A stretch of 64,000 nt of DNA from a virus. Its lineage: Duplodnaviria > Heunggongvirae > Uroviricota > Caudoviricetes. How positions within the stretch are numbered: the first letter of the stretch is position 1; every line of letters begins with the position of its first letter. This document shows, piece after piece, positions 12,923 through 63,313 of the stretch. Location of the stretch: IMG/VR virus record IMGVR_UViG_3300003310_000099, positions 234,295 to 298,294 of that record; one strand, given 5' to 3'. The notes beneath the pieces are model-generated. The model was not told where the DNA came from, did not search any database, and saw only the letters and a list, made by a program, of their open reading frames with translations. A program made the translations under genes and the position numbers.

Positions 12923-12938
12923 CTTAGCTGTACCGAGT
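12923..12938 (+). promoter_or_regulatory. element copy 3 (ATG at +21)
   Basis: CTTAGCTGTACCGAGT-AAACC-ATG. Confidence 0.85.
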
Positions 12939-12943
12939 AAACC

Positions 12944-13153
12944 ATGAATGACTGGACTTTCGACAAAATCAGTGAAACCTGGCTTTGCGGTAAAGAAAGC
13001 TGTGGTTGTGGCGTATACAATGATGGTAAAGGCTGGGAAGGCAACGTGTCATGCTCAGACCTTATTGTAGGCATTGGTCCATTTACCACGAAGGAAGAGG
13101 CAATGACTGAATGCCTAAAACAATTAGAGGAATTAAAGGTGCGAAATGGTTGA
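12944..13153 (+). CDS. hypothetical protein (leaderless)
   Basis: ATG at +21 of element. Confidence 0.65.
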   Translation: MNDWTFDKISETWLCGKESCGCGVYNDGKGWEGNVSCSDLIVGIGPFTTKEEAMTECLKQLEELKVRNG

Positions 13154-13412
13154 GTTATATGATGCTCATTACGAAATGGATTTGGGATGTGGCGGCGATA
13201 TTTGGCATTTAAGAGGCAATGTAGTCAACCATCCTAATTTCCCAGATTGGGATAGTGTTGGTCCTTCAACTCCAGTTGAGTTCGATGAAGCCACTGACAC
13301 CATGAAAACTGCAAGTGGCAAGACATACAAGATTATGTCTTATATCAACAAAGCAAGCGTCGTTGAGCAAATCAAGAAGGATATTGCAAAGAAAGGATAT
13401 GAAGTACACTAA
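13146..13412 (+). CDS. hypothetical phage protein
   Basis: ORF, LRGNVVNHPNF. Confidence 0.65.
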   Translation: MVELYDAHYEMDLGCGGDIWHLRGNVVNHPNFPDWDSVGPSTPVEFDEATDTMKTASGKTYKIMSYINKASVVEQIKKDIAKKGYEVH

Positions 13413-13690
13413 TGGCTAAATTTGCTATCTTTATGGTCTGTATGCTTGTCATGTTTTACGAGGGTCTTGGACTCCATCTGATGTGGGGTTGGTATATTAC
13501 CAAGGTTTTTGGTGGTATTCAACCTGGAATCGTCGCGTGTATTGGCTTGTCGATGATCGTTAGCATGGTTAAGCCATCGCCAGTGCCAGATGATATGGAT
13601 ACGGAGAAGGTTTTGTTTGTACTTCTTAATTCCGTGTTCCGTGTCACTTTCATGCTGATTGTTGGGTATATTCTCCATTTTTGGATTTGA
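13412..13690 (+). CDS. membrane protein
   Basis: three hydrophobic segments. Confidence 0.65.
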   Translation: MAKFAIFMVCMLVMFYEGLGLHLMWGWYITKVFGGIQPGIVACIGLSMIVSMVKPSPVPDDMDTEKVLFVLLNSVFRVTFMLIVGYILHFWI

Positions 13691-13851
13691 AAAATGATTT
13701 ACTTGGCAATTGTCATAGTTCTTGTTGCATTAAGTTTATATAATTGTTATAATCGGTATAAGAGGCTAGAATGGGCTTCTTATACCGATGGCTTTTATAA
13801 GGGCTTTTGGCAACTGCTGTTATATGTATTTTTACTAGGATTAGTGATAGG

Positions 13852-15222
13852 ATGGGGGATTTCAAGGTGAGATTTGGCAATCAACCCAAATCCAACAAAA
13901 TGAAGAAGAAGGAACTTCAAGAAAAGAAGTTCCGTGCAGAACAGCAACAGGCGGCTGTGCCTAAACCACCTGTTGTTTATGTTTTGAAGACGAAGGTACG
14001 CAATCTCTCGAAAGCCATTGAGGAAATTTTTGAAGGGAAGAAGGATTTCCCCTACACCGAAAACAAAATCCATAACATTAAGAATGCCGTAGGCAGTCTT
14101 AATAGAGATGAAGGACTTAAACGAATTCTTCTACATTTTGTCGATCAGAAGGTAGAATTCGCTGAGAAGGGCCATGTAAATAATTATTATGGTCATCGTG
14201 AAAACGTCAAAACTCCATTAAACGCTCTAATTAACCTCTCAAAATATCTTCATAAAGCTATTCGTCCTATTGAGGATTGGGAATCTCCCAGCCACAATAC
14301 TGCTCGCTGTATTGCCAGTTTTGCACGTCATTTGTACGCAAAATACTACGTTCCATCTTTTATGGATGAAGTTTGGTACAATGAAGGACTGGCACATCAA
14401 GTTTGGTTTCTTCACATTGGCTCAGGACAGAATATCAGAACTGCACAGGGTTTGCCTGTTCCATTGACCAAGAAAGAAGCCCATTTCTTTATGCAGGCTC
14501 CCAAGGACATTGGGCCATTAAACGCTATTCGTTACGGTCAAATTATCAATATGGGTGGCAATGAGGCTTTCGTTCGCCAAATCCTCAAAACCAGAATTGC
14601 CAATGATTTCGATATTGAGAGAAATAAGTTTTATCAGAGCATTTTCGTTTGGTTTATGGCAAATCCGATGTTGGACACTTGCCATTATGCGCCTATTCTT
14701 GACTATATTCACAATCAGAAATATGTTGGGTATCGGCTCAATGAACAGGGGATGATGGTTCCCCGTCAGCCCAATTTCTGTATGAAGGGGCGTGAGCCAG
14801 AATCATTATTGAGACAGGTTGAGGCTTGGCACAAGCAGACTGGCAAGGAAAGCCGTGGGAATAATTTCCCTGAATGGGCAGCTTGTGGACGTAAGGGTTT
14901 GTATCATAAGACCAATGATACTCTTCACACGATTCGTGAAATTTGCACTCAAAAGGAATTGATTGAAGAGGGTCGCAAGATGCACCATTGCGTTGCTTCT
15001 TATGCAGGAAGTTGCGCCCGTGGGGATATCTCTATTTGGTCCTACGAAGTCATGGATATTAACGGATTGAATAAGAGATTAACTCTGGAAGTTAGTAATC
15101 GTGAAGCTGTAATTCGTCAGGCTCGCGGCAAATATAATGCAATGGCTACTGCTAGTGATATGCATTTTGTCAAACTTTGGGCTAGGGAAGCTGGTATTGG
15201 CATTTCAAAATACATAATTTAA
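13852..15222 (+). CDS. PcfJ-like domain protein
   Basis: ELIEEGRKMHHCVASY, LTLEV, QARGKYN; start uncertain (13852-13900). Confidence 0.8.
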   Translation: MGDFKVRFGNQPKSNKMKKKELQEKKFRAEQQQAAVPKPPVVYVLKTKVRNLSKAIEEIFEGKKDFPYTENKIHNIKNAVGSLNRDEGLKRILLHFVDQKVEFAEKGHVNNYYGHRENVKTPLNALINLSKYLHKAIRPIEDWESPSHNTARCIASFARHLYAKYYVPSFMDEVWYNEGLAHQVWFLHIGSGQNIRTAQGLPVPLTKKEAHFFMQAPKDIGPLNAIRYGQIINMGGNEAFVRQILKTRIANDFDIERNKFYQSIFVWFMANPMLDTCHYAPILDYIHNQKYVGYRLNEQGMMVPRQPNFCMKGREPESLLRQVEAWHKQTGKESRGNNFPEWAACGRKGLYHKTNDTLHTIREICTQKELIEEGRKMHHCVASYAGSCARGDISIWSYEVMDINGLNKRLTLEVSNREAVIRQARGKYNAMATASDMHFVKLWAREAGIGISKYII

Positions 15223-15237
15223 CCATATATAATCTAT

Positions 15238-16128
15238 ATGGCTAAACCAGAATTTTTTAGAGGCACACCACCAAGTAGTGCATTTGGTAAAGAAATCCCT
15301 TGTCAGGGTCGTATTACAGGCACAGCTGGGAAGCCCGTCTATCAAGACAACCAAACTAATTTAACATCTTTATATTGGACGCCATTTTATGGTGAGAGTA
15401 TAGGTCTGTATAACGGCAGCACTTGGGATGTTATTACATTTACAGAAACTTCTGTATCAGTTCCTGGCACAACAGATACGAACTACGATTTATTTGCTTA
15501 TAATAATTCTGGAACATTAGCTTTAACAACAGCCGCTTGGTTTAATGACAGTACCAGAAATGACCCAATTGACTATACTGATGGCATTCCGCTTCTTATA
15601 TCTGATAAAACAAGACGTTATTTAGGATCATTTAGGACGACTGCATCTAGTGGGGAGACAGAGGACAGCAAGGCCAAGAGACTTGTGTGGAATTATTATA
15701 ACCGTAGGCAGGTAATTGGATTCCGTCCAAGTTTTACAGCTAGTTGGACTAGCAGTGGTAATGGTTCTTGGGCTGCAATGGACAGTGGTGCTTCTGAGTG
15801 GAGATTCGACTGGATACAAGGCGTCAATGAAGACAACATGAACGCGAGAGCATATTGTGGTTGTGGCCAAGGTGCCCAATTCGCCATTGCATTGAACGGA
15901 ACTAGCCCAAATGGTCAGTACACTACAATTGGTGGCCATAATGTATCAGGAATTATAAACTGCTCTTGTGAGTATTCAAACTTTATAGGTATTTTCGGTA
16001 GTTACAACTATTTGCAGGTAGTGCAAACTTCATACAGTGGCAGTTCGGCTACATTTTATGGCCTTAATACCACAGGTAGCGGCACATTGGGTAATAATAG
16101 TGGATTTGTTACTGTTTCTTGGCGTTAA
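15238..16128 (+). CDS. putative virion structural/tail-associated protein
   Basis: Thr/Ser/Gly/Asn-rich; late-type ATATATA upstream. Confidence 0.6.
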   Translation: MAKPEFFRGTPPSSAFGKEIPCQGRITGTAGKPVYQDNQTNLTSLYWTPFYGESIGLYNGSTWDVITFTETSVSVPGTTDTNYDLFAYNNSGTLALTTAAWFNDSTRNDPIDYTDGIPLLISDKTRRYLGSFRTTASSGETEDSKAKRLVWNYYNRRQVIGFRPSFTASWTSSGNGSWAAMDSGASEWRFDWIQGVNEDNMNARAYCGCGQGAQFAIALNGTSPNGQYTTIGGHNVSGIINCSCEYSNFIGIFGSYNYLQVVQTSYSGSSATFYGLNTTGSGTLGNNSGFVTVSWR

Positions 16129-18331: not shown

Positions 18332-18356
18332 TTACTTATATAGTATGTAGCGATAG

Positions 18357-18372
18357 CTTAGCTGTACCAAGT
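18357..18372 (+). promoter_or_regulatory. element copy 4
   Basis: exact core. Confidence 0.8.
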
Positions 18373-18374
18373 GC

Positions 18375-18403
18375 TTTACAAACCCCAATTTTCGTGGTAG
18401 AAT
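18375..18403 (+). promoter_or_regulatory. sigma70-type promoter
   Basis: TTTACA-N17-TAGAAT with TG extension. Confidence 0.65.
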
Positions 18404-19548: not shown

Positions 19549-19731
19549 ATGGCACTAGAACTACAAATAGCCATATTAATTGTGGCTGGTGTTGTCGGCA
19601 GTTTCTTAATCGGGTTGGGAGCTTATCTTGGATTGAAAGATTCCAATAACCCAACTGGATTTCTTTTTGGGCTTGGCGGTTTAGGTCTAATCGTATTTGC
19701 TATTCTAGCCGTGATTGGTAAGATCAAATAG
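19549..19731 (+). CDS. 2-TM membrane protein
   Basis: two hydrophobic helices; stop abuts element. Confidence 0.65.
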   Translation: MALELQIAILIVAGVVGSFLIGLGAYLGLKDSNNPTGFLFGLGGLGLIVFAILAVIGKIK

Positions 19732-19747
19732 CTTAGCTGTACCGAGT
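19732..19747 (+). promoter_or_regulatory. element copy 5 (ATG at +21)
   Basis: exact core. Confidence 0.85.
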
Positions 19748-19752
19748 AGTCC

Positions 19753-19926
19753 ATGATTACCTACAACCAAATTAAGAATCTGCCGAACAATCATCCTCTG
19801 GTCGAACAGTTTAAGCGAGAACTGCAAGACTTTGAGATGTATGAAAAGCGTATTGGCGACAATAATCCATTGGCGGATGAAGAATCCAAGGCTTATTTCG
19901 ACCGTTATATTGCGGGGGACCGATGA
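19753..19926 (+). CDS. 57-aa protein (leaderless; not in ORF track)
   Basis: MITYNQIKNL...; ATGA-coupled to next gene. Confidence 0.7.
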   Translation: MITYNQIKNLPNNHPLVEQFKRELQDFEMYEKRIGDNNPLADEESKAYFDRYIAGDR

Positions 19927-25287: not shown

Positions 25288-25464
25288 GTTATTATTCAAC
25301 TGCTGACGCAAAGTACAAGAGTGCTTGTGACCATATAAAAGAAGCGATTAGAGATTTGTCTGCCATTGTGGTTGATGAAGTGGATGGCTACAGCGACCAC
25401 AATGACTTCCATGTTATAGAAGCTTTGCAGGAACTAATCGCAATTAAGAAAAAGCTCGAATAAC

Positions 25465-25480
25465 CTTAGCTGTACCGAGT
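25465..25480 (+). promoter_or_regulatory. element copy 7
   Basis: exact core; AGGAGG begins at +21. Confidence 0.85.
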
Positions 25481-25496
25481 GATGCAGGAGGAACCA

Positions 25497-26978: not shown

Positions 26979-27158
26979 ATGAGACGAGCAGAAATTAAAA
27001 CTAAAACTGTTACACAAAGCAATGATGCACATTGCCACAATCCACGGTCTAACGGGCATAAAAACCGTAAATCAATCAGGCGAAATAGCTCCAAGAGGCT
27101 AAGGCAATTAGTAAAACGGGATACCTTAGCTGTACTGAGTCAGGTACAGGAGAACTAA
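26979..27158 (+). CDS. small basic protein (59 aa; not in ORF track)
   Basis: CTAAATA-AACT-ATG; Arg/Lys-rich. Confidence 0.5.
   Translation: MRRAEIKTKTVTQSNDAHCHNPRSNGHKNRKSIRRNSSKRLRQLVKRDTLAVLSQVQEN
27125..27140 (+). promoter_or_regulatory. element copy 8
   Basis: CTTAGCTGTACTGAGT. Confidence 0.8.
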
Positions 27159-28542: not shown

Positions 28543-29214
28543 ATGAAATCTTTTGCTGAATATGTGGAAATGAGAGAGGGTGTATTAAGCCAAGTGCGTG
28601 GCTATTTTAACAAAGGCAATCAAGCGAATAATAAACTAGAATTGGATGCTAGGAACGCATTAAAAGCTGTAATTAAAAATCTTGCAAATTCTAGTGACCC
28701 TAAGTTAAAATATCTTTATAGTGGCGGCTATGCTCATGAATTATACAAGATTCGCCAATTTATAATAGCAAATAGGACGCAACCACAGGCTCAGCAACAA
28801 CCACAGCAGACCCAAGAGAGTATTGGTCAGGCTATTGGTAATTGGGCTGGTCAAGGTGGATTACTTGGTGCTGCATGGAACAAAATGACCCGTTCAAAAG
28901 AAATGGTGCAGCACAACGAACTTGAAAATAAAGCAATTAAGGCTTTGCAGGCTCTTGCAGACCGAGTAAATTACGAAAAAGGGGAATTGTATTACAGTGG
29001 TTACGGCTCAAGAATACAGTGGTACGTTAATTGGTTGAAAAAGGCACAGGCATTTAATAATACAAATATGGGCGTTCCTGATGAATCCCCACCAGAGGAT
29101 TATATCTCTTATCGTAGGGTTCAAAACCCTCAGCTTAGAAGTAAGCGAGTATCTGCACCTGGACAACAATTACCTGGCCAACAACAGACTCCAAGATCAG
29201 GCCGTTGGGCTTAA
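28543..29214 (+). CDS. putative head-internal protein with internal duplication
   Basis: TATATATA 4 nt before ATG; MKSFAEYVEMRE. Confidence 0.65.
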   Translation: MKSFAEYVEMREGVLSQVRGYFNKGNQANNKLELDARNALKAVIKNLANSSDPKLKYLYSGGYAHELYKIRQFIIANRTQPQAQQQPQQTQESIGQAIGNWAGQGGLLGAAWNKMTRSKEMVQHNELENKAIKALQALADRVNYEKGELYYSGYGSRIQWYVNWLKKAQAFNNTNMGVPDESPPEDYISYRRVQNPQLRSKRVSAPGQQLPGQQQTPRSGRWA

Positions 29215-29217
29215 AAG

Positions 29218-29233
29218 CTTAGCTGTACCTAGA
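29218..29233 (+). promoter_or_regulatory. element copy 9
   Basis: exact core. Confidence 0.8.
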
Positions 29234-29253
29234 GTTTAGCAAAGGAGATTCTT

Positions 29254-31496: not shown

Positions 31497-31601
31497 AGTA
31501 TGGACAAAATTAAAGCATGGATGCTCGGCTTAGCTATAAAAGCCACTTTGGTTTGGAGATTCTTTGTCGAGTTAGTTAAAGCTGTCTTCGGCGTCAAATA
31601 G

Positions 31602-31617
31602 CTTAGCTGTACCGAGT
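31602..31617 (+). promoter_or_regulatory. element copy 10
   Basis: exact core; GGAGG begins at +21. Confidence 0.85.
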
Positions 31618-31634
31618 AGTGTGGAGGTGCAAAA

Positions 31635-33557: not shown

Positions 33558-33799
33558 ACGCAACTCCTGAGTTTTGGACACCGCAAGAGCTTACAGACAA
33601 AGAACTTAACGACATTTGTTCATGGCTTATGGCCTGGCAACGTGCATGTGTCAGTAGTGATTGTTTGGCTAGTGACTTCACTGAGGATGGGCAACTTTTG
33701 CCGAGTCAGAAACTTGACCCTAATTTCAAGACTGCAATGAATCATGTGCAGTCTTTAATACGGCACATCAGGGCTAAAAAGCTTAGCTGTACCGAGTAA
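33554..33799 (+). CDS. hypothetical protein ending in element-encoded LSCTE
   Basis: coupled ORF. Confidence 0.6.
   Translation: MNATPEFWTPQELTDKELNDICSWLMAWQRACVSSDCLASDFTEDGQLLPSQKLDPNFKTAMNHVQSLIRHIRAKKLSCTE
33782..33797 (+). promoter_or_regulatory. element copy 11
   Basis: exact core; AAGGAG begins at +21. Confidence 0.85.
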
Positions 33800-33815
33800 A
33801 CAAAGGAGCCAAAAA

Positions 33816-36601: not shown

Positions 36602-36606
36602 AAGCC

Positions 36607-38607: not shown

Positions 38608-38609
38608 AC

Positions 38610-41209: not shown

Positions 41210-41220
41210 CTGTACCGATG
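41205..41220 (+). promoter_or_regulatory. element copy 16 (ATG at +21)
   Basis: exact core; supplies pyrD stop codon. Confidence 0.85.
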
Positions 41221-41225
41221 AAGTT

Positions 41226-41897
41226 ATGTTCAACCGAGCTAAGCGACTTCTGAACCTGAAAGATTATGCGAATCATATCTCACCCATTGATTGTGGTGAG
41301 ATTAACTTGCAGCCGCCATACGTTAGGCAGTATGTTCTGCGGATGATGGTTCGAGGGCTGTATGGTTCCCAGATTGTTCTCCCTGATTCGCTACTCTGGT
41401 TGAAGGATACGATTGAGTATTGCGACGGTATTCAGAAGAAGCATGGCATCCATCATCAATTCATTTACATTACAGTCCGTCATGGGCTTGTAACCAGTAC
41501 GAATGATGATACTTGGCATGTCGATGGTTTCTCAATGCGATACGAACATCTGCCAGAACAAAACTACATTTATTCCAATGTATCTGGCACTGAGATTCTA
41601 AGGCAAGGATTCGATATCCCTGATGACTTTGATCCTGAAAAGCATCATATTCATCAGTATTTTCAAGACCATGCGAAGGGCGAATCATACGCTCTGCCTG
41701 TCAATAGGCTGTTCGTAATTGATCCTTATATCGTCCATCGTAGGCCAAATGTCAGTGGCCAAAGAACTTTTGTAAGGATTTCCTTCGTCCCAATCGAAAT
41801 TGAGGACGATACTTGTGAAAAGAATCCCTTAATGCCTTCACGAACCTATAACCGTGAAGACGTTAGAAAAACTCTGCGGAGGTACGGATATGACTAA
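41226..41897 (+). CDS. 2OG-Fe(II) oxygenase-like protein
   Basis: WHVDG, distal H, RTFVRISF. Confidence 0.65.
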   Translation: MFNRAKRLLNLKDYANHISPIDCGEINLQPPYVRQYVLRMMVRGLYGSQIVLPDSLLWLKDTIEYCDGIQKKHGIHHQFIYITVRHGLVTSTNDDTWHVDGFSMRYEHLPEQNYIYSNVSGTEILRQGFDIPDDFDPEKHHIHQYFQDHAKGESYALPVNRLFVIDPYIVHRRPNVSGQRTFVRISFVPIEIEDDTCEKNPLMPSRTYNREDVRKTLRRYGYD

Positions 41898-42515: not shown

Positions 42516-42697
42516 AAAAATCAAAGAAAATGTATTGGATGGCATTTATTGCTGGTTTAGCCAATCTACCATTTGTATTTATGACAAGTCCAGAGAATCT
42601 TAGGAATCTCTGGTTTACTGTTCCAATGGTTGTCATGCTGTTCACTATGTTTGGTTTGGCTGTCCATGCGATGCGGCTTGAGGGCGAAGGCCGATAG
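42512..42697 (+). CDS. 2-TM membrane protein
   Basis: stop abuts element. Confidence 0.6.
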   Translation: MKKSKKMYWMAFIAGLANLPFVFMTSPENLRNLWFTVPMVVMLFTMFGLAVHAMRLEGEGR

Positions 42698-42713
42698 CTT
42701 AGCTGTACCGAGT
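42698..42713 (+). promoter_or_regulatory. element copy 17
   Basis: exact core. Confidence 0.8.
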
Positions 42714-42747
42714 GGTTTGTAACCAACAACCCAAACGGAGAACAAAT

Positions 42748-46346: not shown

Positions 46347-47326
46347 ATGATAAATGAATATGAAGCTTATGAGCCAGGTTGGGATGAAATGAATCCCGAC
46401 TCTGCCATGCACAGTTTTGGTGATGCTGACAAATTTACTGCTTTTATATGGGTTTATGATAGGAAAAGTGGTAAATCATTATTGTATTCACAACCTGGGA
46501 ATGAGTTTCATGGTACAGGCACAGGTCCAAAAGAATACGGCGGCACCGAGCTAAGAAAAGCCCTATTATTCAAAAAAAGGGATGCAGTTGCCTGTTTTGG
46601 TCGGTTTGGTGTGACCAATAAAGGTGGATTCGTCACTATTTGGAAATATCAAGAGGAAGAACCACTTACCCATTACGACCGCACTTACCAAAAAGAAGGG
46701 AATCGTGGCTTTAATTCACCAAATAAAGATGACATTAAAGTGCTTCTAAAGGGTTTAATGGCGCAGGCTCCCATGAAGGTAATTGGTAAATCCCCAGCTA
46801 AATTACCTATTACCGCCGATTATGTATTTGTTGTCGGTGGTAATGCACAGACCGTTGGCGAATTTATAGGAGATTCAGGCAAAGAACAAGACCCTCGTTG
46901 TAAAGCAATGGTGATTGATATTCAAGGTAGGCCAACACCATTAGACCAGATTCAAGCATCAATGCACATGGTTAGAGGGCAACAGCTTGCATTGCTCAGA
47001 GGCGGTTTTTGTTCTCAATATCAGGCATTAAAAAGGAATGCAGATACTGCACATTGCCAGATTCAGCATCGTCAAATAGATGATATTCAGAGTAAGTTTA
47101 AGTGCGGCGACGATCAAGATGAATACCAGAAAATGCTCAAGGCTGGTAGAGCAGATTATAAGCAGATTATAAGCAGAAATTAAGAGACATTTTCCGTTCA
47201 CCAGAAAAGATTGGTCAAGAATTCAGAACTCAGAGAGAAATAGATGCAGCATGGGATAAGCTCCAAGGTGAAGGTTTCAGTTTCAAAGAATGGCTGAATA
47301 CCTTAGCTGTACCGAGTAAGCCATGA
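46347..47326 (+). pseudogene. late gene frameshifted by 11-bp tandem duplication
   Basis: AGCAGATTATA x2 at 47150-47171; removing one unit restores ORF to FSFKEWL...*. Confidence 0.75.
47302..47317 (+). promoter_or_regulatory. element copy 18 (ATG at +21)
   Basis: exact core. Confidence 0.85.
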
Positions 47327-48723: not shown

Positions 48724-49455
48724 ATGGATTACTTATCAATCTGTGCAATTTTCAAACAAGAAAATCCATTCCTTAAAGAATGGCTCGATTACTACGCAAC
48801 AAAGGTAGATTCATTCTACCTTTGTTGCAATGACGAAGACGACGAAGAAGCCAAAAATATCATTAAACCCTATAATGTTCACTATTATCATAAGATTGGT
48901 GAAGAATTACAGATGGGGTTTTACAATGAGGTCTTAAAAGAGGCTAAATCCAGGTGGATAGCATTCATCGACCTGGATGAATTCATAGTTAATATAGACA
49001 ACCTACCAGCTTACGAGCAATACGGTGGTTTGGTATTAAATATGATTTGCTTCGGAGCTAATGGATTAATTGAATTCCCAATATCTCAGACTCAACAACT
49101 CACAAAGCGTCTGCCCGACTATTGCGGTTGGCCAGGGCATTCGTTTATTAAAAGTATCGTAAACCCTGATAAGGTATTGAGATACGGCAATCAGCCTCAC
49201 GCACCTATTTACAAGGATTCATTTGCGGTTAATACCAAGCATGAGATTGTGACGGGGCATTTCACTACGCCAGAAGTATCGGAGATAATGAGGATCAATC
49301 ATTATTATACTCGGAGCAGGAAGTGGTGGGAGATTAAGATGAATCGGGGTCATGCGGACAACAAGAATAATAAATACTACTGGCATGATTTCCTGACTAT
49401 CGAAAAGAACGCTACGGTAGACGATTATACCTTAGCTGTACCGAGTAGTCCATGA
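48724..49455 (+). CDS. glycosyltransferase, GT-A fold (GT92/GT2-like)
   Basis: LSICAIFKQE, EWLDY, FIDLDEF, KSIV, INHYYTRS. Confidence 0.85.
   Translation: MDYLSICAIFKQENPFLKEWLDYYATKVDSFYLCCNDEDDEEAKNIIKPYNVHYYHKIGEELQMGFYNEVLKEAKSRWIAFIDLDEFIVNIDNLPAYEQYGGLVLNMICFGANGLIEFPISQTQQLTKRLPDYCGWPGHSFIKSIVNPDKVLRYGNQPHAPIYKDSFAVNTKHEIVTGHFTTPEVSEIMRINHYYTRSRKWWEIKMNRGHADNKNNKYYWHDFLTIEKNATVDDYTLAVPSSP
49431..49446 (+). promoter_or_regulatory. element copy 19 (ATG at +21)
   Basis: exact core. Confidence 0.85.
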
Positions 49456-50944: not shown

Positions 50945-51118
50945 TAATGAACCGTATTGTAAATGCAATCGCAAATGCCACTATTCCAGTTTCTTTTGAG
51001 ATTTGGGTTATTCGTAACCTAATTATAACGGCATGTGCGGTTCTCTGCATCTGTCTAAATGCAGATAGATCAATCTTTGTGGCAATGGGTGTACTCGCAA
51101 TCATCATTGCCTGGAAAG

Positions 51119-51134
51119 CTTAGCTGTACCGAGT
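51119..51134 (+). promoter_or_regulatory. element copy 20 (ATG at +21)
   Basis: exact core. Confidence 0.85.
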
Positions 51135-51139
51135 AGTCC

Positions 51140-51409
51140 ATGATTAACCAGAAAGTACAAGCCACTGTTTGGTACTACGTTCCTAACATCTATGGCGATG
51201 ACGTAGACAAAGACTTCCTTGGCGATATCATTGGCACTGTTGAATCAATTGCTCCCTACAACCCGAACATTCTGCGAATCAGGGTTGAGAAATTCAGACC
51301 GAATTTCATCAATGCTGATTGGACTGATGATCTGAGTCCTATTAAATTTGCGTGCCATTACAAAGATGGCTACCTGGAGGAATGGGATTACAATGCGCAG
51401 CGAGTATGA
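51140..51409 (+). CDS. hypothetical protein (leaderless)
   Basis: ATG at +21. Confidence 0.65.
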   Translation: MINQKVQATVWYYVPNIYGDDVDKDFLGDIIGTVESIAPYNPNILRIRVEKFRPNFINADWTDDLSPIKFACHYKDGYLEEWDYNAQRV

Positions 51410-53290: not shown

Positions 53291-53595
53291 TGGACATGGA
53301 CAAATTGTTCCTTGCTCAGACTATTCGCCATCTTCATGAAGCCTATGATAAGATGGGCGAGGCTCTGAAAGGTGCGCAGGCCGCAAAGAATGAAAAGCTT
53401 TTTGGCCTCATTTACCAGAAGCAATGGGAAATTGCGGAATTGGCGGCTACACTGATTGCTGAAACTAGACAACCGCAAATTGAATGCGATGATTGTGGTC
53501 ATAAGAATAATGACCTGATTACCAAGGGCGATCATCACGGCGGGCAAAAGACCGTTTGTCGTGATCGTAACCTATGTCACTCCAGGGGCGGATAG
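53290..53595 (+). CDS. hypothetical protein
   Basis: stop abuts element. Confidence 0.6.
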   Translation: MDMDKLFLAQTIRHLHEAYDKMGEALKGAQAAKNEKLFGLIYQKQWEIAELAATLIAETRQPQIECDDCGHKNNDLITKGDHHGGQKTVCRDRNLCHSRGG

Positions 53596-53611
53596 CTTAG
53601 CTGTACCAAGT
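53596..53611 (+). promoter_or_regulatory. element copy 22
   Basis: exact core. Confidence 0.8.
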
Positions 53612-53631
53612 ATAACTCAAGGAGCTAATAA

Positions 53632-54232: not shown

Positions 54233-54430
54233 GTGAAAATGTCAATTTTTTGGCAAGAAACCAAGGTTCCTGATGGCGTCTATGGTGGCATCCAAAGTGG
54301 TTATGAAGTCGAAATCCTGGTCAATGATAAAAGGGTGAGGTTCCATACCGAACGTGGACTAAGGGGAATAAATATCCCTGTGACCGTGACCATTAAGGAT
54401 GGAGACTTAATCCGACTCGACAAACCTTAG
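54233..54430 (+). CDS. hypothetical protein
   Basis: stop within element. Confidence 0.6.
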   Translation: MKMSIFWQETKVPDGVYGGIQSGYEVEILVNDKRVRFHTERGLRGINIPVTVTIKDGDLIRLDKP

Positions 54431-54441
54431 CTGTACCAAGT
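54426..54441 (+). promoter_or_regulatory. element copy 23
   Basis: exact core. Confidence 0.8.
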
Positions 54442-54601
54442 GATTCAAAGGGGTACAAAGTGAAAGAGATTACACTCGAAATCACCATTGAAAAGTCTCA
54501 ATGGGTTGAAACAAATGCTCTTATTCGGCGGATTCAAAAGGAACTTGAATGGCCGCTTGCAACTGGTGGCTGTTCTATCGTCTCTATTCAGGAGAAACAA
54601 C

Positions 54602-55577: not shown

Positions 55578-55764
55578 ACTCATTGATTTCCTTACATTCG
55601 ATGAACTACTTGGAAAGTTAAAGGAACACGCCAAGGAAATTCATCCAGATAAGGAATTCATACCCTTTTGGCGTCTACTTCTCCGTGGCAACGAGTTAGT
55701 GATTCGTGCAACCGTAAGCGATGGCAAGGTTGGTCCTCAAGAGCCAGTAGAGTTAGTCCGAAAC

Positions 55765-55780
55765 CTTAGCTGTACCGAGT
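55765..55780 (+). promoter_or_regulatory. element copy 24 (ATG at +21)
   Basis: exact core. Confidence 0.85.
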
Positions 55781-55785
55781 AATCC

Positions 55786-55965
55786 ATGAACACTTGCACT
55801 GGCAGCGGAAAGCTAAGCTCTGTATCAGACTTTAACGTGCTTACCAAGCACGCTAATTGTCCTGTCTGTCACCAAAAGGTACGCATCACTATACCTGATA
55901 GGAAGATGCACGCTAATCGTGCAAAATTCGCAAAGCATAGGAGGGACAATGGACGCGACAATTAA
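55786..55965 (+). CDS. 59-aa zinc-binding protein (leaderless; not in ORF track)
   Basis: CTGSG..CPVC..KH. Confidence 0.65.
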   Translation: MNTCTGSGKLSSVSDFNVLTKHANCPVCHQKVRITIPDRKMHANRAKFAKHRRDNGRDN

Positions 55966-56164
55966 CCTGGAAAAGCGTAAGCTAACTGTAGGCCAAATGG
56001 CTGAACTGTGGTCCGAAATTGATGATTGTGGCTACAAGCTGCGTAATCTGAACATTCAGACTCAGAATTCAGGGGAATTCTACAAGATCGTGGACCGTCT
56101 AGTTGAATTGCAAAAGAAACTCAAGTGGCATGAAGTGGCCGAAAAGCTTAGCTGTACGGAGTAA
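55949..56164 (+). CDS. hypothetical protein ending in LSCTE
   Basis: SD AGGAGG. Confidence 0.65.
   Translation: MDATINLEKRKLTVGQMAELWSEIDDCGYKLRNLNIQTQNSGEFYKIVDRLVELQKKLKWHEVAEKLSCTE
56147..56162 (+). promoter_or_regulatory. element copy 25 (ATG at +21)
   Basis: CTTAGCTGTACGGAGT. Confidence 0.85.
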
Positions 56165-56167
56165 AGC

Positions 56168-56629
56168 ATGAACACTTACGAAGTCACTCCTATCGCCCGT
56201 GAACTCATGAATCAGCATGGCCTTGGCCACTGGACCTTCCAGTATGATCGGGCCAAACGTCGTGCAGGTTTGTGCCAACATCGTCGGCAGACTATCTCCC
56301 TCAGTGTGAATTACGTTCATCGTAATGACATTGTGGATATCAAGGACACCATTCTTCACGAAATCGCCCATGCTCTGGTTGGCCCTGGTCATGGCCATAA
56401 TAATGTCTGGAGAGCGATGTGCGTCAAGATTGGTGCAAAGCCTCAACGGTGCTGCGGTGAGCATGTCGATATGCCCAAGGGACGTTGGCAGGCTCTTTGT
56501 CGTGGTTGTGGTAAAACCTTCCACAAGCATCGTCGTCCCAAGTATATGACTGGAACTCATTGCCGTAAGTGTGGGCCAGTCTTGGGCGCTCTGGTTTGGG
56601 GTGGTGGATATGTCGAAATACAGGGGTAG
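56168..56629 (+). CDS. SprT-like zinc metalloprotease
   Basis: RRAGLC, HEIAH, GH..W, C-terminal zinc ribbon. Confidence 0.85.
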   Translation: MNTYEVTPIARELMNQHGLGHWTFQYDRAKRRAGLCQHRRQTISLSVNYVHRNDIVDIKDTILHEIAHALVGPGHGHNNVWRAMCVKIGAKPQRCCGEHVDMPKGRWQALCRGCGKTFHKHRRPKYMTGTHCRKCGPVLGALVWGGGYVEIQG

Positions 56630-56642: not shown

Positions 56643-56688
56643 GAGCAACTAGAGGGGCATAATGTTCTCTAGTTGCCTCGCCCCTTTA
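56643..56688 (+). terminator. hairpin/terminator
   Basis: GCAACTAGAG / CTCTAGTTGC inverted repeat. Confidence 0.55.
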
Positions 56689-56690
56689 AC

Positions 56691-56706
56691 CTTAGCTGTA
56701 CCGAGT
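56691..56706 (+). promoter_or_regulatory. element copy 26 (ATG at +21)
   Basis: exact core. Confidence 0.85.
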
Positions 56707-56711
56707 AAACT

Positions 56712-56930
56712 ATGAAACTAAATGAAAATCAACTAAACAGCCTACGCCGTAATATCGAAAAGGATATTGCAGACGCTACTGGACTTGAAATTGATAACGT
56801 CGAACAACGATGGGACCACTATCGAGCATGGTTCTCCTATGAGAACCGCAACGATAAGCTGATTCGTGGTTACATTGATTTTAAGGCCCATTTCTGTGAG
56901 AATAACCTGGAAGATTTTACTGAGGTGTAA
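56712..56930 (+). CDS. hypothetical protein (leaderless)
   Basis: ATG at +21. Confidence 0.65.
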   Translation: MKLNENQLNSLRRNIEKDIADATGLEIDNVEQRWDHYRAWFSYENRNDKLIRGYIDFKAHFCENNLEDFTEV

Positions 56931-57852: not shown

Positions 57853-58007
57853 TTAGAATAGAAAAACGATACCCGAATCATCCTGAATCCCCTTATCTGG
57901 TCATTAACCAAAAATCACCAGATAAGGGGCAAATTATCGCAACCATCATCCCTCATACTTTCCTTGAGGATGAAGATAAAATCGCCCTGGACAAGTGGCT
58001 CAAAAAC

Positions 58008-58023
58008 CTTAGCTGTACCGAGT
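58008..58023 (+). promoter_or_regulatory. element copy 27 (ATG at +21)
   Basis: exact core. Confidence 0.85.
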
Positions 58024-58028
58024 AAAAC

Positions 58029-58262
58029 ATGAACGACAACGATTACTTCAATCTGATGCGGAAAGAAACTGCCCAAAAGTTGCTCAGTGAGACTGCCATT
58101 ATTGCAGCCGCACTGGAAGACTTGGCCAATGACCGTAATGTAAGCGAAGCACAACGAACGCTTCGTGACCACATTGATGGTAATTGGCACGCTGTTGTAG
58201 TGGGCAACTGTACATCAGTGGGCCATCTTCTATACGAAGATTGTCCTGAACAGGAGAATTAA
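58029..58262 (+). CDS. hypothetical protein (leaderless)
   Basis: ATG at +21. Confidence 0.65.
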   Translation: MNDNDYFNLMRKETAQKLLSETAIIAAALEDLANDRNVSEAQRTLRDHIDGNWHAVVVGNCTSVGHLLYEDCPEQEN

Positions 58263-58463
58263 ATGGACCTGGATGATATTCCGCAAAACGAGATTGATTT
58301 GCCAATGGGCGTTACGGAAGTTGAGTACGATACAGAAGCTGAAATGAAGGCTTTTATCGACGGGCTTCAGTTCGCTGATGACATTGACGTGAACAATAGC
58401 AATTATTTCGTGCGGAATGGCAAATTCATCGTGCGTGTTGTCGTCGGTGATTGGGACGAATAA
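58263..58463 (+). CDS. acidic small protein
   Basis: SD AGGAG. Confidence 0.65.
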   Translation: MDLDDIPQNEIDLPMGVTEVEYDTEAEMKAFIDGLQFADDIDVNNSNYFVRNGKFIVRVVVGDWDE

Positions 58464-58465
58464 AC

Positions 58466-58481
58466 CTTAGCTGTACCAAGG
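58466..58481 (+). promoter_or_regulatory. element copy 28
   Basis: exact core. Confidence 0.8.
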
Positions 58482-58489
58482 AGAATGTA

Positions 58490-58728: not shown

Positions 58729-58995
58729 ATGGATTTGCCGAAGCTGAAAGATTATGGCAATTCGCCTTCGACCCGATTCCTGAATATCGGACCCGTTACG
58801 GTCTGGTTCAGTTATGAAACGCCTATTGCGTTTCGTGTGGACGGTGGACCGCAACGAGTGCTGGACTATAAGGGCAGTCGCACCACTTTCCGCCATCTGA
58901 ATATGATTGATGGCGGCAATAAGGATGCTCGTCTGTCTCAGACTGAATTTCAGAAGCTGTGGGAAAAGGAAGTGGTGCTGAGGGCGAAAGCTTAG
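58729..58995 (+). CDS. hypothetical phage protein
   Basis: WFSYETPIAF..SRTTFRHLN. Confidence 0.7.
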   Translation: MDLPKLKDYGNSPSTRFLNIGPVTVWFSYETPIAFRVDGGPQRVLDYKGSRTTFRHLNMIDGGNKDARLSQTEFQKLWEKEVVLRAKA

Positions 58996-59006
58996 CTGTA
59001 CCAAGT
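58991..59006 (+). promoter_or_regulatory. element copy 29
   Basis: exact core; precedes non-coding cassette. Confidence 0.8.
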
Positions 59007-59011
59007 GATCT

Positions 59012-59149
59012 GAGCGGAACGTTGCTCTCCGCTATATAAGACAGAGCAACTTAGTCGGTGGTAAAGGCTTCGAGCCGTGACACTGGATGACAAAAGCCTC
59101 TGTGGTAATGAATCTGAAATCGCTGGTTTGATCCCAGCCAGAGGCGACA
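59012..59149 (+). ncRNA. candidate ncRNA: 5' pseudoknot + tRNA-like acceptor/T-arm domain
   Basis: AGCGGA/TCCGCT and GTTGCTC/GAGCAAC; GCCTCTG/CAGAGGC with GCTGG-TTTGATC-CCAGC. Confidence 0.65.
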
Positions 59150-59153
59150 AAAG

Positions 59154-59169
59154 CTTAGCTGTACCAAGT
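59154..59169 (+). promoter_or_regulatory. element copy 30
   Basis: exact core. Confidence 0.8.
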
Positions 59170-59206
59170 AGTTTGTTCCGACACTGATAACAAAGGGGAG
59201 AACAAA

Positions 59207-59976: not shown

Positions 59977-60447
59977 ATGAACCTAAAAGATGAAATCACC
60001 CGTATTGAACAAGAAATGGCCAATATGGTTAATAAAGCCATGAATAGGAGCAATATGAACGAAGATTACGAAGAAAACATCTTTGAAGATGACGACCTCA
60101 CTCCAGATGAGGATGGTTTACTCAATCGTGGCGAAATGACTTTGGCCGAATTTGACGATGCAAATGTCCCCGTTGATATTTGGCTTGAAGAATTGAATAA
60201 AGATAATGCCGATGATGATTTGGCCATCTATAATGCAGGCTATCGCTATTCCCTTCGCTGTGGCAATTATATGCCGCGTAAAGGTAGCGTAAGTGAAGGT
60301 GCCGTCAATGCCTTTGGCAAAGATAAAGAAACAATGCAGAAGGCAATTAACAAATACATTCTGCCTTTGTATCAGACTGCCATTAGCAAAATCACTAAGA
60401 TGGCTGAGACAGGCAACGGCGATCTGTACTATTGGAGCAACGACTAA
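59977..60447 (+). CDS. acidic hypothetical protein
   Basis: ORF; degenerate element tail upstream. Confidence 0.65.
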   Translation: MNLKDEITRIEQEMANMVNKAMNRSNMNEDYEENIFEDDDLTPDEDGLLNRGEMTLAEFDDANVPVDIWLEELNKDNADDDLAIYNAGYRYSLRCGNYMPRKGSVSEGAVNAFGKDKETMQKAINKYILPLYQTAISKITKMAETGNGDLYYWSND

Positions 60448-60450
60448 TAC

Positions 60451-60466
60451 CTTAGCTGTACTGAGT
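60451..60466 (+). promoter_or_regulatory. element copy 31 (ATG at +21)
   Basis: CTTAGCTGTACTGAGT. Confidence 0.85.
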
Positions 60467-60471
60467 AAATC

Positions 60472-60627
60472 ATGAACACCCTCGATAATTGGTTCAAAAA
60501 GATCGAAGAGTATAAGCAAAAAGCAAAGCTGGGTACTCTCACCAAGGAAGAACAAGAAGATTGGGATTTCATGGAGGAAAAGCTTGAAGATTGGCGCTCC
60601 GATTATTACGGCATGGAGAATTACTAA
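60472..60627 (+). CDS. 51-aa protein (leaderless; not in ORF track)
   Basis: TAATG-coupled to next gene. Confidence 0.65.
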   Translation: MNTLDNWFKKIEEYKQKAKLGTLTKEEQEDWDFMEEKLEDWRSDYYGMENY

Positions 60628-61963: not shown

Positions 61964-62225
61964 TGTTACAACACAACCAGACCGCGATGAAGATGGTAAA
62001 CTTGTCTTCAAAAAGCGGCCCCATAAAATCATGGGCAAAGGTGTCGTCACTTGCACCAAATGTAATACTTCTTGGTGCTGCTGCGAATGCGCAGTCGAAT
62101 GCGATGCACTCGATCATCACTATTTTGATATGATTTATGAACATGAAGGCAAAACACCACCAGTCTACGAAGTGGTGTGCTGCAAGTGTTCGGGTAATAA
62201 ACCATCGTGGACCGACCGCGATTAA
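61950..62225 (+). CDS. Cys-rich small protein
   Basis: multiple CxxC pairs. Confidence 0.6.
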   Translation: MLCPNVTTQPDRDEDGKLVFKKRPHKIMGKGVVTCTKCNTSWCCCECAVECDALDHHYFDMIYEHEGKTPPVYEVVCCKCSGNKPSWTDRD

Positions 62226-62226
62226 C

Positions 62227-62239
62227 CTTAGCTGTACCA
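62227..62239 (+). promoter_or_regulatory. element copy 33 (truncated; ATG at +13)
   Basis: CTTAGCTGTACCA-ATG. Confidence 0.7.
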
Positions 62240-62419
62240 ATGAGAAAAGATCAACCACTGTATCGTCAATACCTGGAAGCTGTTATCAAGTCACTCCTTG
62301 CCGAACGTGAATTAAACGGCAAGGGTGATTTTGATAAGATTGAAGGCATAGATTTTCAAGGCAACTCTGCCTATTATATGCCGTACAACATTAAAGAGGC
62401 TATCAATGAAAGACTTTAA
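62240..62419 (+). CDS. hypothetical protein
   Basis: ORF after element. Confidence 0.55.
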   Translation: MRKDQPLYRQYLEAVIKSLLAERELNGKGDFDKIEGIDFQGNSAYYMPYNIKEAINERL

Positions 62420-62557
62420 TTCGGGCGAACGCTTGGCCCTGGAATGGGTGCAACAGCAGCTGGAAGACCTCCTTGATAAAAAGGATATTACCGATAAGGA
62501 AGTCAAAATCGTCTCGGAACGTATCTGCCGACGAATTGACAAAATCTGGAGCGAACA

Positions 62558-62776
62558 GTGAACGAGTTAATCTTCCAAGATGCAGTCAGTGGCCTCACCG
62601 AATACTATCCATTTTTAATGGATGAGTCACTGGTAGGCGAATTTGAATCCTGTATCAAATACCCCAATTCAGGCAATAACCAACTAGATTACCAAAACGT
62701 CAGGGATCAATTAGAAAAAATCTGCCGTAAATTTGAATATCTTTTGATCTACAAAGAAGTAAAGAGGATGCCGTGA
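62558..62776 (+). CDS. hypothetical protein
   Basis: GTGA-coupled. Confidence 0.55.
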   Translation: MNELIFQDAVSGLTEYYPFLMDESLVGEFESCIKYPNSGNNQLDYQNVRDQLEKICRKFEYLLIYKEVKRMP

Positions 62777-62936
62777 GCGAAAAACAAGAATTCAATGATG
62801 TAGTCGAAGCTATCCAGTTTAGATTGGAACAACTGAATAGCATGGGCTATAAAATGACCGATCAATTCGTTGCCCGATTGATTGCTAAATACTGCGTTGA
62901 CGTGGCACCAATCATCGTCCGAGAAGGAATTAAAGA

Positions 62937-63128
62937 ATGAAAAAAATTCACGCTGGCCTCACAATCCTACTCAAATACGGCGATGGCCATATTTGCGCAG
63001 AACATGACGAAATCTTTGCAGGTAGCGATAAAGCTACCCCCGAAACTATGTCCAAAGAAGATTTAGACGCACTTGAAGAACTCGGCTGGTCCTGGCATGA
63101 TACCGATAGCTGGCACCATTTTGTCTAA
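62937..63128 (+). CDS. small phage protein
   Basis: AEHDEI...LEELGW. Confidence 0.7.
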   Translation: MKKIHAGLTILLKYGDGHICAEHDEIFAGSDKATPETMSKEDLDALEELGWSWHDTDSWHHFV

Positions 63129-63130
63129 AC

Positions 63131-63146
63131 CTTAGCTGTACCAAGT
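63131..63146 (+). promoter_or_regulatory. element copy 34 (ATG at +21)
   Basis: exact core. Confidence 0.85.
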
Positions 63147-63151
63147 AAACC

Positions 63152-63313
63152 ATGAACCACTGCAAAAGCTGCCTCGAACCTGAAACTCAACCCGATGGTG
63201 TCATCGACCTAATCGAAGGTCTTTGTGACTATTGCCGCGAAAAACAAGAATACGGCAAAATCCTCACCCAAGACCTAATCGAATCTGGAGATTTTGACTA
63301 TGAAACTACTTAA
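63152..63313 (+). CDS. 53-aa zinc-binding protein (leaderless; not in ORF track)
   Basis: CKSC..CDYC. Confidence 0.65.
   Translation: MNHCKSCLEPETQPDGVIDLIEGLCDYCREKQEYGKILTQDLIESGDFDYETT

Follow-up and report, generated by a model that had tools for sequence, protein, structure and literature searches.

How does a sequence that stands in front of many unrelated phage genes act on them, when a start codon so often begins at one and the same distance beyond it? The question is raised by a 64,000-bp stretch of DNA (the window, which here means the whole stretch analysed), comprising bases 234295-298294 of the 373,404-bp virus record IMGVR_UViG_3300003310_000099 (CheckV completeness 98%). The source is a jumbo phage of myovirus-like type, whose genome has a GC content of 41% and carries 58 tRNAs besides rIIA, baseplate and tail genes. 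We scanned both strands for the motif CTTAGCTGTACCGAGT, allowing up to three mismatches, and found 34 copies on the + strand of the window and none on the - strand; the whole genome has 111 forward copies and 3 reverse. The position 21 nucleotides (nt) after the first C of the motif (C1) is called +21 and is the putative RNA position +1, from which the remaining positions (-25 to +4) are numbered. We conclude that +21 is very probably an RNA start set by its distance from the motif, which would make the motif a phage-specific promoter, and that the exact start site and leaderless translation are likely. The fuller account, in which host core RNA polymerase with a phage sigma factor reads this promoter and makes leaderless mRNAs wherever +21 falls on an ATG, we consider probable.

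The motif and what stands at +21

An ATG begins at exactly +21 in 16 of the 34 window copies, where 0.78 would be expected (binomial P ~1e-17), and at the other offsets between 16 and 60 there are at most four ATGs each. These 16 starts had been listed in an initial annotation of the window, and all of them are reproduced here, as are the purine at +21 in 33 of 34 copies, the pyrimidine-purine (YR) step at +20/+21 in 28 of 34, and the four copies in which a Shine-Dalgarno (SD) sequence lies at or just after +21 (25486, 31623, 33803 and 27146). The 16 ATGs were also said to have no SD, which holds for 15 of them when the upstream sequence is screened for GGAG, GAGG and AGGA; at C1 56147 the variant ACGGAGT puts GGAG 8 nt before the ATG. 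The further estimate that about half of the transcripts start on the AUG describes the window well, but across the genome ATG is found at +21 in only 27 of 111 copies (24%). All 27 of these starts are ATG; where a copy has GTG at +21, an SD-led ATG follows shortly after it. The 27 proteins have no mutual similarity, and since they are non-paralogous the ATG at +21 was not inherited through duplication.

The copies in the window are listed below, each with the open reading frame (ORF) that follows it and its length in amino acids (aa).

9914..9939 (+): motif, C1 9918, variant ...CCGAGG; +21 is G; ATG 9942 after a 3-nt leader; SD-like GAGGGAG within the variant motif
11105..11130 (+): motif, C1 11109; +21 is A, inside the -35 of TTTACA-N17-TAAAGT (11127-11155); ATG 11176 (101 aa)
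12919..12944 (+): motif; leaderless ATG 12944; ORF 12944-13153 (69 aa)
18353..18378 (+): motif, C1 18357; divergent from a minus-strand radical-SAM gene (17525-18331), 25 nt away; overlapped by the sigma-70-type promoter TTTACA-N17-TAGAAT (18375-18403)
19728..19753 (+): motif; leaderless ATG 19753; gene 19753..19926 (+), 57 aa
24377..24402 (+): motif; +21 is G; 31-nt leader with GGGGG as SD; ATG 24433 (284 aa)
25461..25486 (+): motif; +21 is the A of AGGAGG; 11-nt leader; ATG 25497 (108 aa)
27121..27146 (+): motif; +21 is A (ACAGGAG); 15-nt leader; ATG 27161 (126 aa)
29214..29239 (+): motif with 2 mismatches; +21 is G; 15-nt leader with AAGGAG; ATG 29254 (76 aa)
31598..31623 (+): motif; +21 is the G of GGAGG; 12-nt leader; ATG 31635 (84 aa)
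33778..33803 (+): motif; +21 is the A of AAGGAG; 13-nt leader; ATG 33816 (98 aa)
36582..36607 (+): motif; leaderless ATG 36607; ORF 36607-36831 (74 aa)
36828..36853 (+): motif; +21 is G (GTTCC); 25-nt leader with GGGGG; ATG 36878, AAA ATPase (363 aa)
38606..38631 (+): motif; leaderless ATG 38631; ORF 38631-38918 (95 aa), with a homologue in LR756511
39342..39367 (+): motif; +21 is A; 29-nt leader with AGGAG; ATG 39396
41201..41226 (+): motif with 2 mismatches; leaderless ATG 41226; ORF 41226-41897 (223 aa)
42694..42719 (+): motif; +21 is G (GTAAC leader); 29-nt leader with GGAG; ATG 42748 (188 aa)
47298..47323 (+): motif; leaderless ATG 47323; ORF 47323-47523 (66 aa)
49427..49452 (+): motif; leaderless ATG 49452; ORF 49452-49844 (130 aa)
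51115..51140 (+): motif; leaderless ATG 51140; ORF 51140-51409 (89 aa), with a homologue in LR756511
51851..51876 (+): motif; leaderless ATG 51876; ORF 51876-52541 (221 aa)
53592..53617 (+): motif, the sole copy with a pyrimidine (T) at +21; 15-nt leader with AAGGAG; ATG 53632 (125 aa)
54422..54447 (+): motif; +21 is A; 13-nt leader; GTG 54460
55761..55786 (+): motif; leaderless ATG 55786; gene 55786..55965 (+), 59 aa, Cys-rich
56143..56168 (+): motif, C1 56147, variant ACGGAGT creating GGAG; ATG at +21; SprT-like protein 56168-56629 (153 aa)
56687..56712 (+): motif; leaderless ATG 56712; ORF 56712-56930 (72 aa)
58004..58029 (+): motif; leaderless ATG 58029; ORF 58029-58262 (77 aa)
58462..58487 (+): motif, variant ...CCAAGG creating AAGGAG; +21 is G; ATG 58490 after a 3-nt leader
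58987..59012 (+): motif, C1 58991; +21 is G, then hairpin-like GAGCGGAACGTTGCTCTCCGCT, then TATATAAG
59150..59175 (+): motif; +21 is G (GTTCC); 32-nt leader; ATG 59207 (237 aa)
60447..60472 (+): motif; leaderless ATG 60472; ORF 60472..60627 (+), 51 aa
61228..61253 (+): motif; leaderless ATG 61253; ORF 61253-61477 (74 aa)
62223..62248 (+): motif, degenerate with 3 mismatches; +21 is A; no clear downstream ORF
63127..63152 (+): motif; leaderless ATG 63152; ORF 63152..63313 (+), 53 aa, Cys-rich

A position matrix of 109 copies gives a conserved block at -25 to -6, WWAS-CTTAGCTGTACC-R-AGT, contiguous over ~20 bp and with an information content of ~30 bits. It is followed by a weakly conserved pattern, Y-1 R+1 T+2 R+3 A+4, with a pyrimidine at -1 in 101 of the 109 copies, a purine at +1 in 104, T at +2 in 78 and A at +4 in 68; the YR step is also seen in the recomputed base frequencies. 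The element had been placed at -21 to -6, but the block begins 4 nt earlier (WWAS, -25 to -22) and positions -1, +1, +2 and +4 are informative as well. Nothing upstream of -26 is informative in this matrix, so there is no -35 element, and the matrices of two related genomes, G001 and LR756511 (see below), have the same single-element layout without a -35.

The block was compared with the consensus sequences of sigma-70 (-35/-10, 16-18 bp), sigma-28 (TAAA-N15-GCCGATAA) and sigma-54 (GG-N10-GC, -24/-12) promoters; it is contiguous and matches neither their spacings nor their consensus. Sigma-28, which shares CCGA with the motif, was rejected because the spacing and the conserved bases misfit and CCGA is not kept in relatives, and sigma-54 because its -24/-12 geometry fits neither the spacing nor the conserved bases. 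Other over-represented k-mers of the genome were considered as promoters and resolved to tRNA T-arms and to repeats within one 1877-aa repeat protein. Searches with the motif strings returned only primers, and no description of the motif was found in the literature searched.

Are the ORFs at +21 genes? At most leaderless copies T-6 and two purines form an in-frame stop directly upstream of the ATG, and none of the 16 window ORFs has an alternative SD-led in-frame start downstream. Their codon-usage log-odds are all positive (0.17-0.43 per codon), the reference values being 0.33 +/- 0.09 for long genes and 0.00 +/- 0.16 for shadow ORFs of 50-100 aa. Two relatives allow the starts to be compared: LR756511.1, the nearest GenBank record, is an uncultured 595-kb phage whose RIIA is 54% identical, and G001 is a 390-kb contig (IMGVR_UViG_3300036766_002289; RIIA 74% identical) that was retrieved with a two-sequence RIIA alignment after RIIA alone had retrieved nothing. 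G001 has homologues of 7 of the 27 leaderless proteins, five of them again with ATG at +21. The RNA ligase (364 aa, T4-type), the SprT-like protein and the 221-, 69-, 57- and 59-aa proteins align with their orthologues from residue 1. The G001 orthologue of the SprT-like protein (56168) likewise begins at +21, and that of the 221-aa ORF (51876) is one codon shorter, its ATG again at +21. The 69-aa ORF (12944) has the same Met start in G001, albeit behind an SD-like AGGAAG, and the RNA-ligase orthologue of LR756511 lies behind a motif copy with an SD leader and is not leaderless. In one orthologous pair, from a metagenome fragment, a codon-sized indel immediately follows the +21 ATG.

Four genes of less than 60 aa had been predicted from the spacing, and all four are present at +21, with orthologue support for the two at 19753 and 55786. 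In G001 the orthologues of both are also at +21; the 57-aa gene (19753) has 67% identity and a ratio of nonsynonymous to synonymous divergence (dN/dS) of 0.20, and the 59-aa gene (55786), which weakly matches phrog_2834, has 61% identity and a dN/dS of 0.24, both ratios being computed at near-saturated synonymous divergence. The evidence for the ORFs of 51 aa (60472) and 53 aa (63152) is their codon usage, 0.43 and 0.31 per codon; fewer than 2% of shadow ORFs reach 0.30.

Motif copies are densest at genome 244-325 kb, among tightly packed + strand small ORFs of unknown function, and the genes that they head (rIIA, RNA ligase, the SprT-like protein, the AAA ATPase and many small unknown ORFs) look like an early/middle class. 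GC content climbs from ~40% to 45-50% at genome 290-330 kb (window 55700 onward), coinciding with the peak of motif density at up to 25 copies per 10 kb, which suggests a compositionally distinct, fast-turnover cassette region. Between the copy at C1 58991 and the next at 59154 no convincing ORF was found (58991-59153), and this interval may be a short non-coding transcript or small RNA. Good copies on the reverse strand number only two (genome 324262 and 321933, minus strand); both are followed by TTAGGTTGGAATAAAAAAAGGGGGCCGAAGCCCCC, a GC hairpin that is terminator-like when read on the + strand. This arrangement, which is kept in a relative at a metagenome locus, may be an antisense or small RNA unit. 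A megablast search with 20 kb of the window against GenBank phages gave no match, and neither an Rfam family nor a tRNA was found in the window.

Position +21 as a probable RNA 5' end

The copies without an ATG bear directly on what the motif positions. There are 84 of them in the genome, of which 78 have a purine at +21 and 71 the YR step; the typical sequence is T|GTAAC, with GGAG and a start codon 15-30 nt later. The two classes share the initial RTRAAC (ATGAAC versus GTAAC), T+2 and A+4 being common to both, and because of this shared start the second residue is Asn or Lys in 19 of the 27 leaderless genes, as against 20% of SD-led genes.

Outside the window, the beginnings of three tRNA genes likewise fall at or near +21 of a motif copy. 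In genome coordinates these are:

43692-43793: motif and tRNA-Pro unit; tRNA begins at 43718, 5 nt after +21
44112-44207: motif and tRNA-Val unit; tRNA begins at 44135, 2 nt after +21
124467-124560: motif and tRNA-Met unit; tRNA begins at 124488, 0 nt after +21

The tRNA 5' ends indicate that the motif marks RNA 5' ends, and they exclude a purely translational signal; if transcription starts where the spacing predicts, the primary transcripts of these tRNAs would need little or no 5' trimming. A signal for SD-independent initiation or re-initiation within a polycistronic mRNA, acting at a fixed distance from the ATG, would explain an ATG 21 nt away without an SD, and the upstream stop that often lies within the motif suits termination-reinitiation. 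Three quarters of the copies, however, have no ATG at +21 yet keep Y-1 and R+1, followed by SD-led starts at variable distances. With copies also heading tRNA genes, and with sequence inspection finding no complementarity between the motif and the anti-SD tail, we regard a translational role of this kind as very unlikely.

Sigma-70-type promoter matches in 55 kb number 48, 45 and 22, against 48.5, 44.4 and 28.3 in shuffles, and are not enriched, which leaves the motif as the only promoter signal visible for these genes. Terminator-like sites across 55 kb are likewise not above shuffled controls. Two copies lie in divergent intergenic regions, where no co-directional upstream transcript is expected: in the window, the copy at C1 18357 is separated by 25 nt from the beginning of a minus-strand gene, and the one that heads tRNA-Met (genome 124467) by 94 nt from that of another.

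These positions help to weigh the proposal that the motif is an RNA processing signal, at which a sequence-specific endoribonuclease cuts long transcripts of a few upstream promoters at +21, to leave leaderless mRNAs and tRNA precursors with a 5' monophosphate. In its favour, the copies keep strictly to one strand orientation and the cassettes are packed without terminators. In 19 of the 34 window copies the stop codon of the upstream gene lies inside the motif or within 3 nt of it (the TAG of CTTAGC, the TAG of ATAG|C, or T-6 and two bases), which makes it certain that read-through RNAs include the motif, and the Y|R step could also be a cleavage site. Against this stand the two divergent copies beside minus-strand gene starts and three copies directly upstream of host-type promoters, whose transcripts would exclude the motif; moreover, no other promoter signal is enriched for the about 100 genes concerned. 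Nor is there a conserved RNA structure, RNAalifold on 18 copies giving -0.63 kcal/mol and 3 pairs with no covariation, and to our knowledge no nuclease has a precedent for an unstructured recognition sequence of 20 nt. We consider processing improbable as the source of these 5' ends. All of the computational tests are consistent with the earlier proposal of a promoter whose start is fixed at +21, the start itself being deduced from sequence.

Constant distance and diverged sequence in relatives

The motif has changed among relatives while the spacing has not. G001 lacks AGCTGTAC and has instead a one-base variant, CTTAGTTGTACC, in 101 copies, 97 of them on one strand; ATG stands at +21 in 23 of these, with a pyrimidine at -1 in 81 and a purine at +1 in 88. 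Positions -7 to -2 are unconserved in G001, yet the distance to the start is kept. In LR756511 the top over-represented k-mers spell TATAAAGCTGTACTWAA, and the diverged version of the motif is TAAAGCTGTAC; AAGCTGTAC occurs there in 77 copies against 4.5 expected. Its +21 equivalent is mostly an A after T, then ACCTCTAAC...AAGGAG leaders, and in 11 copies an ATG is at 0 or +1 relative to that position. Metagenome fragments 70-87% identical to the genome retain the motif within diverged flanks, and the core common to the relatives is A-G-(C/T)-T-G-T-A-C at -18 to -11.

Two other huge contigs, with RIIA 33-34% identical, lack the AGCTGTAC core, motifs of their own not having been searched for. 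Scans of IMG/VR with the exact motif gave single chance matches only, and chance matches dominate among the matches listed for the LR756511-type motif. No mention of accession LR756511 was found in the literature searched.

The gene content between motif copies varies among the relatives, and this bears on a further proposal, that the motif acts chiefly at the DNA level, for instance as a boundary for recombination or of cassettes or as a strand-specific nick site, and that its association with gene starts is secondary. Identical repeats do flank about 100 small, unrelated, fast-evolving genes whose content differs between relatives. This resembles the promoter-early stem-loop (PeSL) cassettes of T4-type hyperplastic regions, which carry host sigma-70 promoters and stem-loops. 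A site for recombination alone, though, would need neither a single-nucleotide spacing to ATG, SD and tRNA 5' ends nor Y-1 and R+1, and as the primary function a DNA-level site seems to us extremely unlikely. A shuffling role could coexist with promoter function.

The candidate reader, known systems and meaning

We return to the promoter reading and to the enzyme that it calls for. The recognition block at -25 to -6, with no -35, would position the polymerase, and RNA would start at the purine 21 nt past the first C. When that purine is the A of ATG the mRNA would be leaderless; the other copies would give a very short leader beginning at the SD or a 22-33-nt GTAAC...GGAG leader, and some would drive a tRNA. 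The enzyme would be host core RNA polymerase with one of three phage sigma-like proteins.

The three sigma-70-family ORFs are of 159 aa (genome 16864-17343; FliA/ECF-like, with regions 2 and 4), 275 aa (157512-158339; like the C-terminal part of RpoD) and 110 aa (96335-96667, minus strand; with region 2 alone). Sigma70_r2 is found in all three and r4 in two, with further support from NCBIfam sigma-70 models and phrog_351, and all three proteins have homologues in G001 and LR756511. In a six-frame search none of PF00940, PF00623 and PF00562 was matched, with a threshold as lenient as E<=0.1. The controls for this search matched PF00623 and PF00562 and came from genomes without the T7-like family (PF00940), so that the T7-like negative is weaker than the multisubunit negative. 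The large ORFs examined contain no polymerase domain, and the largest unknown ORF is propeller-like. Since sigma genes are present and no phage polymerase was detected, host core with a phage sigma is the likeliest reader, and because all three sigmas are conserved in both relatives the motif is not assignable to a single one. The 159-aa protein, the best conserved of them (81% identity in G001), would be the favoured candidate. Upstream of its gene in both phages is TTGAC(A/T)-N17-TAT(T/A)(A/C)T (TTGACA-N17-TATTAT in the source phage), a host-type promoter that suggests a cascade in which host sigma-70 would express the 159-aa FliA/ECF-like sigma, and this sigma in turn about 110 motif promoters. 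What the sequences show directly are the statistics, the geometry and its conservation in relatives, and the coding support for the ORFs; a 5'-triphosphate start at +21, the sigma that reads the motif, and the translation of the leaderless messages as such are inferred.

A 20-bp block of moderate GC content is unusual for a sigma-read element, which makes a hidden phage polymerase, whether single-subunit or highly diverged, the main mechanistic rival; the start would still be at +21. A contiguous block of ~20 bp and ~30 bits with a weak initiation region has a T7-type layout and not that of -35/-10, and many large ORFs have no family assignment. Jumbo-phage polymerases are reported to be very diverged (PMC7598289). 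The negative six-frame search, with its matched controls for PF00623 and PF00562, and the propeller-like nature of the largest unknown ORF speak against such an enzyme, as do the three sigma-family genes conserved across relatives and the precedent of phiEco32 for single-element sigma promoters. We therefore judge an unrecognised polymerase to be unlikely, if less so than processing.

Several points weigh against the combination of host core, phage sigma and a start at +21 that we prefer. The block is contiguous over 20 bp and is not AT-rich at -12 to -7 (TACCRAGT), and such an element at this place has no known precedent among promoters of the sigma-70 family; its shape resembles the promoters of single-subunit polymerases, and a phage polymerase that has diverged far enough can go unnoticed by Pfam. 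Region 4 is present in two of the three sigma candidates, yet there is no -35 element for it to read. With terminators rare and stops within the motif, every gene is probably also on read-through transcripts. In some copies a sequence change gives the motif an internal SD (GGAG at C1 56147, and AAGGAG in 13 genome copies including window 58466), so the motif is sometimes part of a translated mRNA. Finally, the start could be 1-2 nt off, or the 5' ends could come from processing. Leaderless and read-through expression may coexist.

Three motif copies stand directly before a strong sigma-70-type promoter, TTKACA-N17-TG-n-TAnAAT (window 11127-11155 and 18375-18403; genome 196431-196465). The -35 hexamer covers +21 of the motif, and the spacer is near-identical in each case (TTTTCGTGGTA). 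The pairing is kept in LR756511 (near 203060, minus strand) and at a metagenome locus, and the two together may work as a dual early/middle promoter or as a regulatory switch. About 25 genes across the genome have a second signal, ATAAATA or TATATAA, 10-12 nt ahead of an ATG that lacks an SD, and ATG at these offsets is enriched 3-4 times (16 of 123 and 21 of 77). This signal would also give leaderless mRNAs or mRNAs with a 1-nt leader, including those of structural genes. Its sites in the window are:

15238: ATAAATA/TATATAA signal
16838 (minus): ATAAATA/TATATAA signal
18331 (minus): ATAAATA/TATATAA signal
28543: ATAAATA/TATATAA signal
46347: ATAAATA/TATATAA signal

With respect to translation, the genome encodes a phage IF1 homologue (167301-167492; PF01176, E 1e-24); homologues of IF3 and S21 were searched for and not found. 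The IF1 gene adjoins a tRNA with anticodon CUA, of the amber suppressor type (genome 167507-167581), and the stop codon contained in many of the motif copies is TAG. A T4-type RNA ligase 1 (genome 313895-314989) lies behind a leaderless motif copy, and in the window are a polynucleotide kinase/phosphatase (2104-3066) and a LAGLIDADG homing endonuclease (3050-3928). Together they make up an RNA-repair set akin to the Pnkp/Rnl pair with which T4 counters anticodon nucleases. Outside the window are a PARP-like/WGR protein (genome 159616-161205), a protein-kinase-like protein (69242-70918) and a nicotinate phosphoribosyltransferase (60605-61981).

Among known systems, the nearest in promoter layout are the middle/late promoters of phiEco32, read by host core with the phage sigma gp36, which have a single conserved element and no -35. 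In the gp36 promoters tAATGTAtA is the sole element and transcription starts 6-8 bp beyond it (PMC8948821), and in the jumbo phage the block ends at -6 before the inferred start. Both phages encode a sigma-family protein of their own and have host-type promoters for early genes, and TGTA is found in both motifs. Unlike the 9-bp element and about six promoters of phiEco32, there are here a 20-bp block, ~110 copies, tRNA targets, and a quarter of the starts on AUG. T4 late promoters, which are read by the sigma gp55 with gp33 and the clamp, have TATAAATA at -13 to -6. They too are -35-less, and the motif has an 8-bp core at the same place (TACCRAGT); rIIA and the 110-aa region-2-only sigma-like ORF are further likenesses. 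The motif differs in sequence, is GC-richer, extends 12 bp farther upstream and heads early/middle-looking genes and not late ones. The ATAAATA/TATATAA signal is closer to TATAAATA than is the 20-bp motif.

T7-type single-subunit promoters span -17 to +6, and the motif is like them in its contiguous ~20 bp, its binding and weakly conserved initiation parts, its many identical copies in one orientation, and the read-through between units; it is unlike them in that no T7-like polymerase gene was detected and the block stops at -6 instead of running through +1. The PeSL cassettes also have dense, small, unrelated ORFs each under the same promoter sequence, with gene content variable between relatives, although the motif is not sigma-70-like and no stem-loop partner is enriched.

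Promoters placed so that RNA begins on the AUG, with no SD, have parallels elsewhere. The lambda cI transcript from PRM is leaderless. In the Thermus phage phiYS40, most middle and late transcripts are leaderless, according to a review (PMC3594737) of the work of Sevostyanova et al. 2007, so that leaderless use covers a whole temporal class of phage genes, and in Deinococcus-Thermus a -10 motif adjacent to ORFs drives leaderless genes (PMC12340547). Those cases use ordinary -10 elements and the host holoenzyme, whereas the element here is a phage-private one of 20 bp whose family also makes leadered mRNAs and tRNAs. Among jumbo phages with mapped starts, phiKZ has no leaderless transcripts (PMC8244752) and AR9 has untranslated regions of 26-491 nt (PMC5312081).

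Phage-private promoters and leaderless phage transcripts are thus each already known. What is new is the use of about 100 copies of a private 20-bp element, a single start position common to leaderless, minimal-leader and normal-leader mRNAs and to tRNAs, the conservation of distance and not of sequence across a giant-phage clade, and the independent recruitment of the start onto AUG in unrelated genes. If the start is confirmed, the motif would map the transcription of about 110 units to the nucleotide, and its variants would do so for relatives; start codons are corrected by it, and small genes missed by ORF-length filters come to light. It would also be the first case in a jumbo phage, unlike phiKZ and AR9, of a phage-private promoter class that systematically yields leaderless mRNAs. 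The element is compact (~26 bp, -25 to +1), and together with its cognate factor it could be used as an orthogonal part for gene expression.

A broader reading, which we offer tentatively and think somewhat doubtful, is that a giant-phage clade including the 373-, 390- and 595-kb genomes has a private transcription system, with a phage sigma or an unrecognised polymerase. Its ...AG(C/T)TGTAC... core at -18 to -11 and ruler-fixed start would have been exploited repeatedly, in unrelated genes of each lineage, to place an AUG or the first base of a tRNA, and expression without leaders would amount to a deliberate programme. It would free about a quarter of the early/middle genes from SD-based initiation, possibly with help from phage translation factors such as the IF1 homologue, and some tRNAs would be independent of 5' processing. 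The question that this raises is whether giant phages use leaderless initiation to escape or outcompete the SD-dependent translation of the host.

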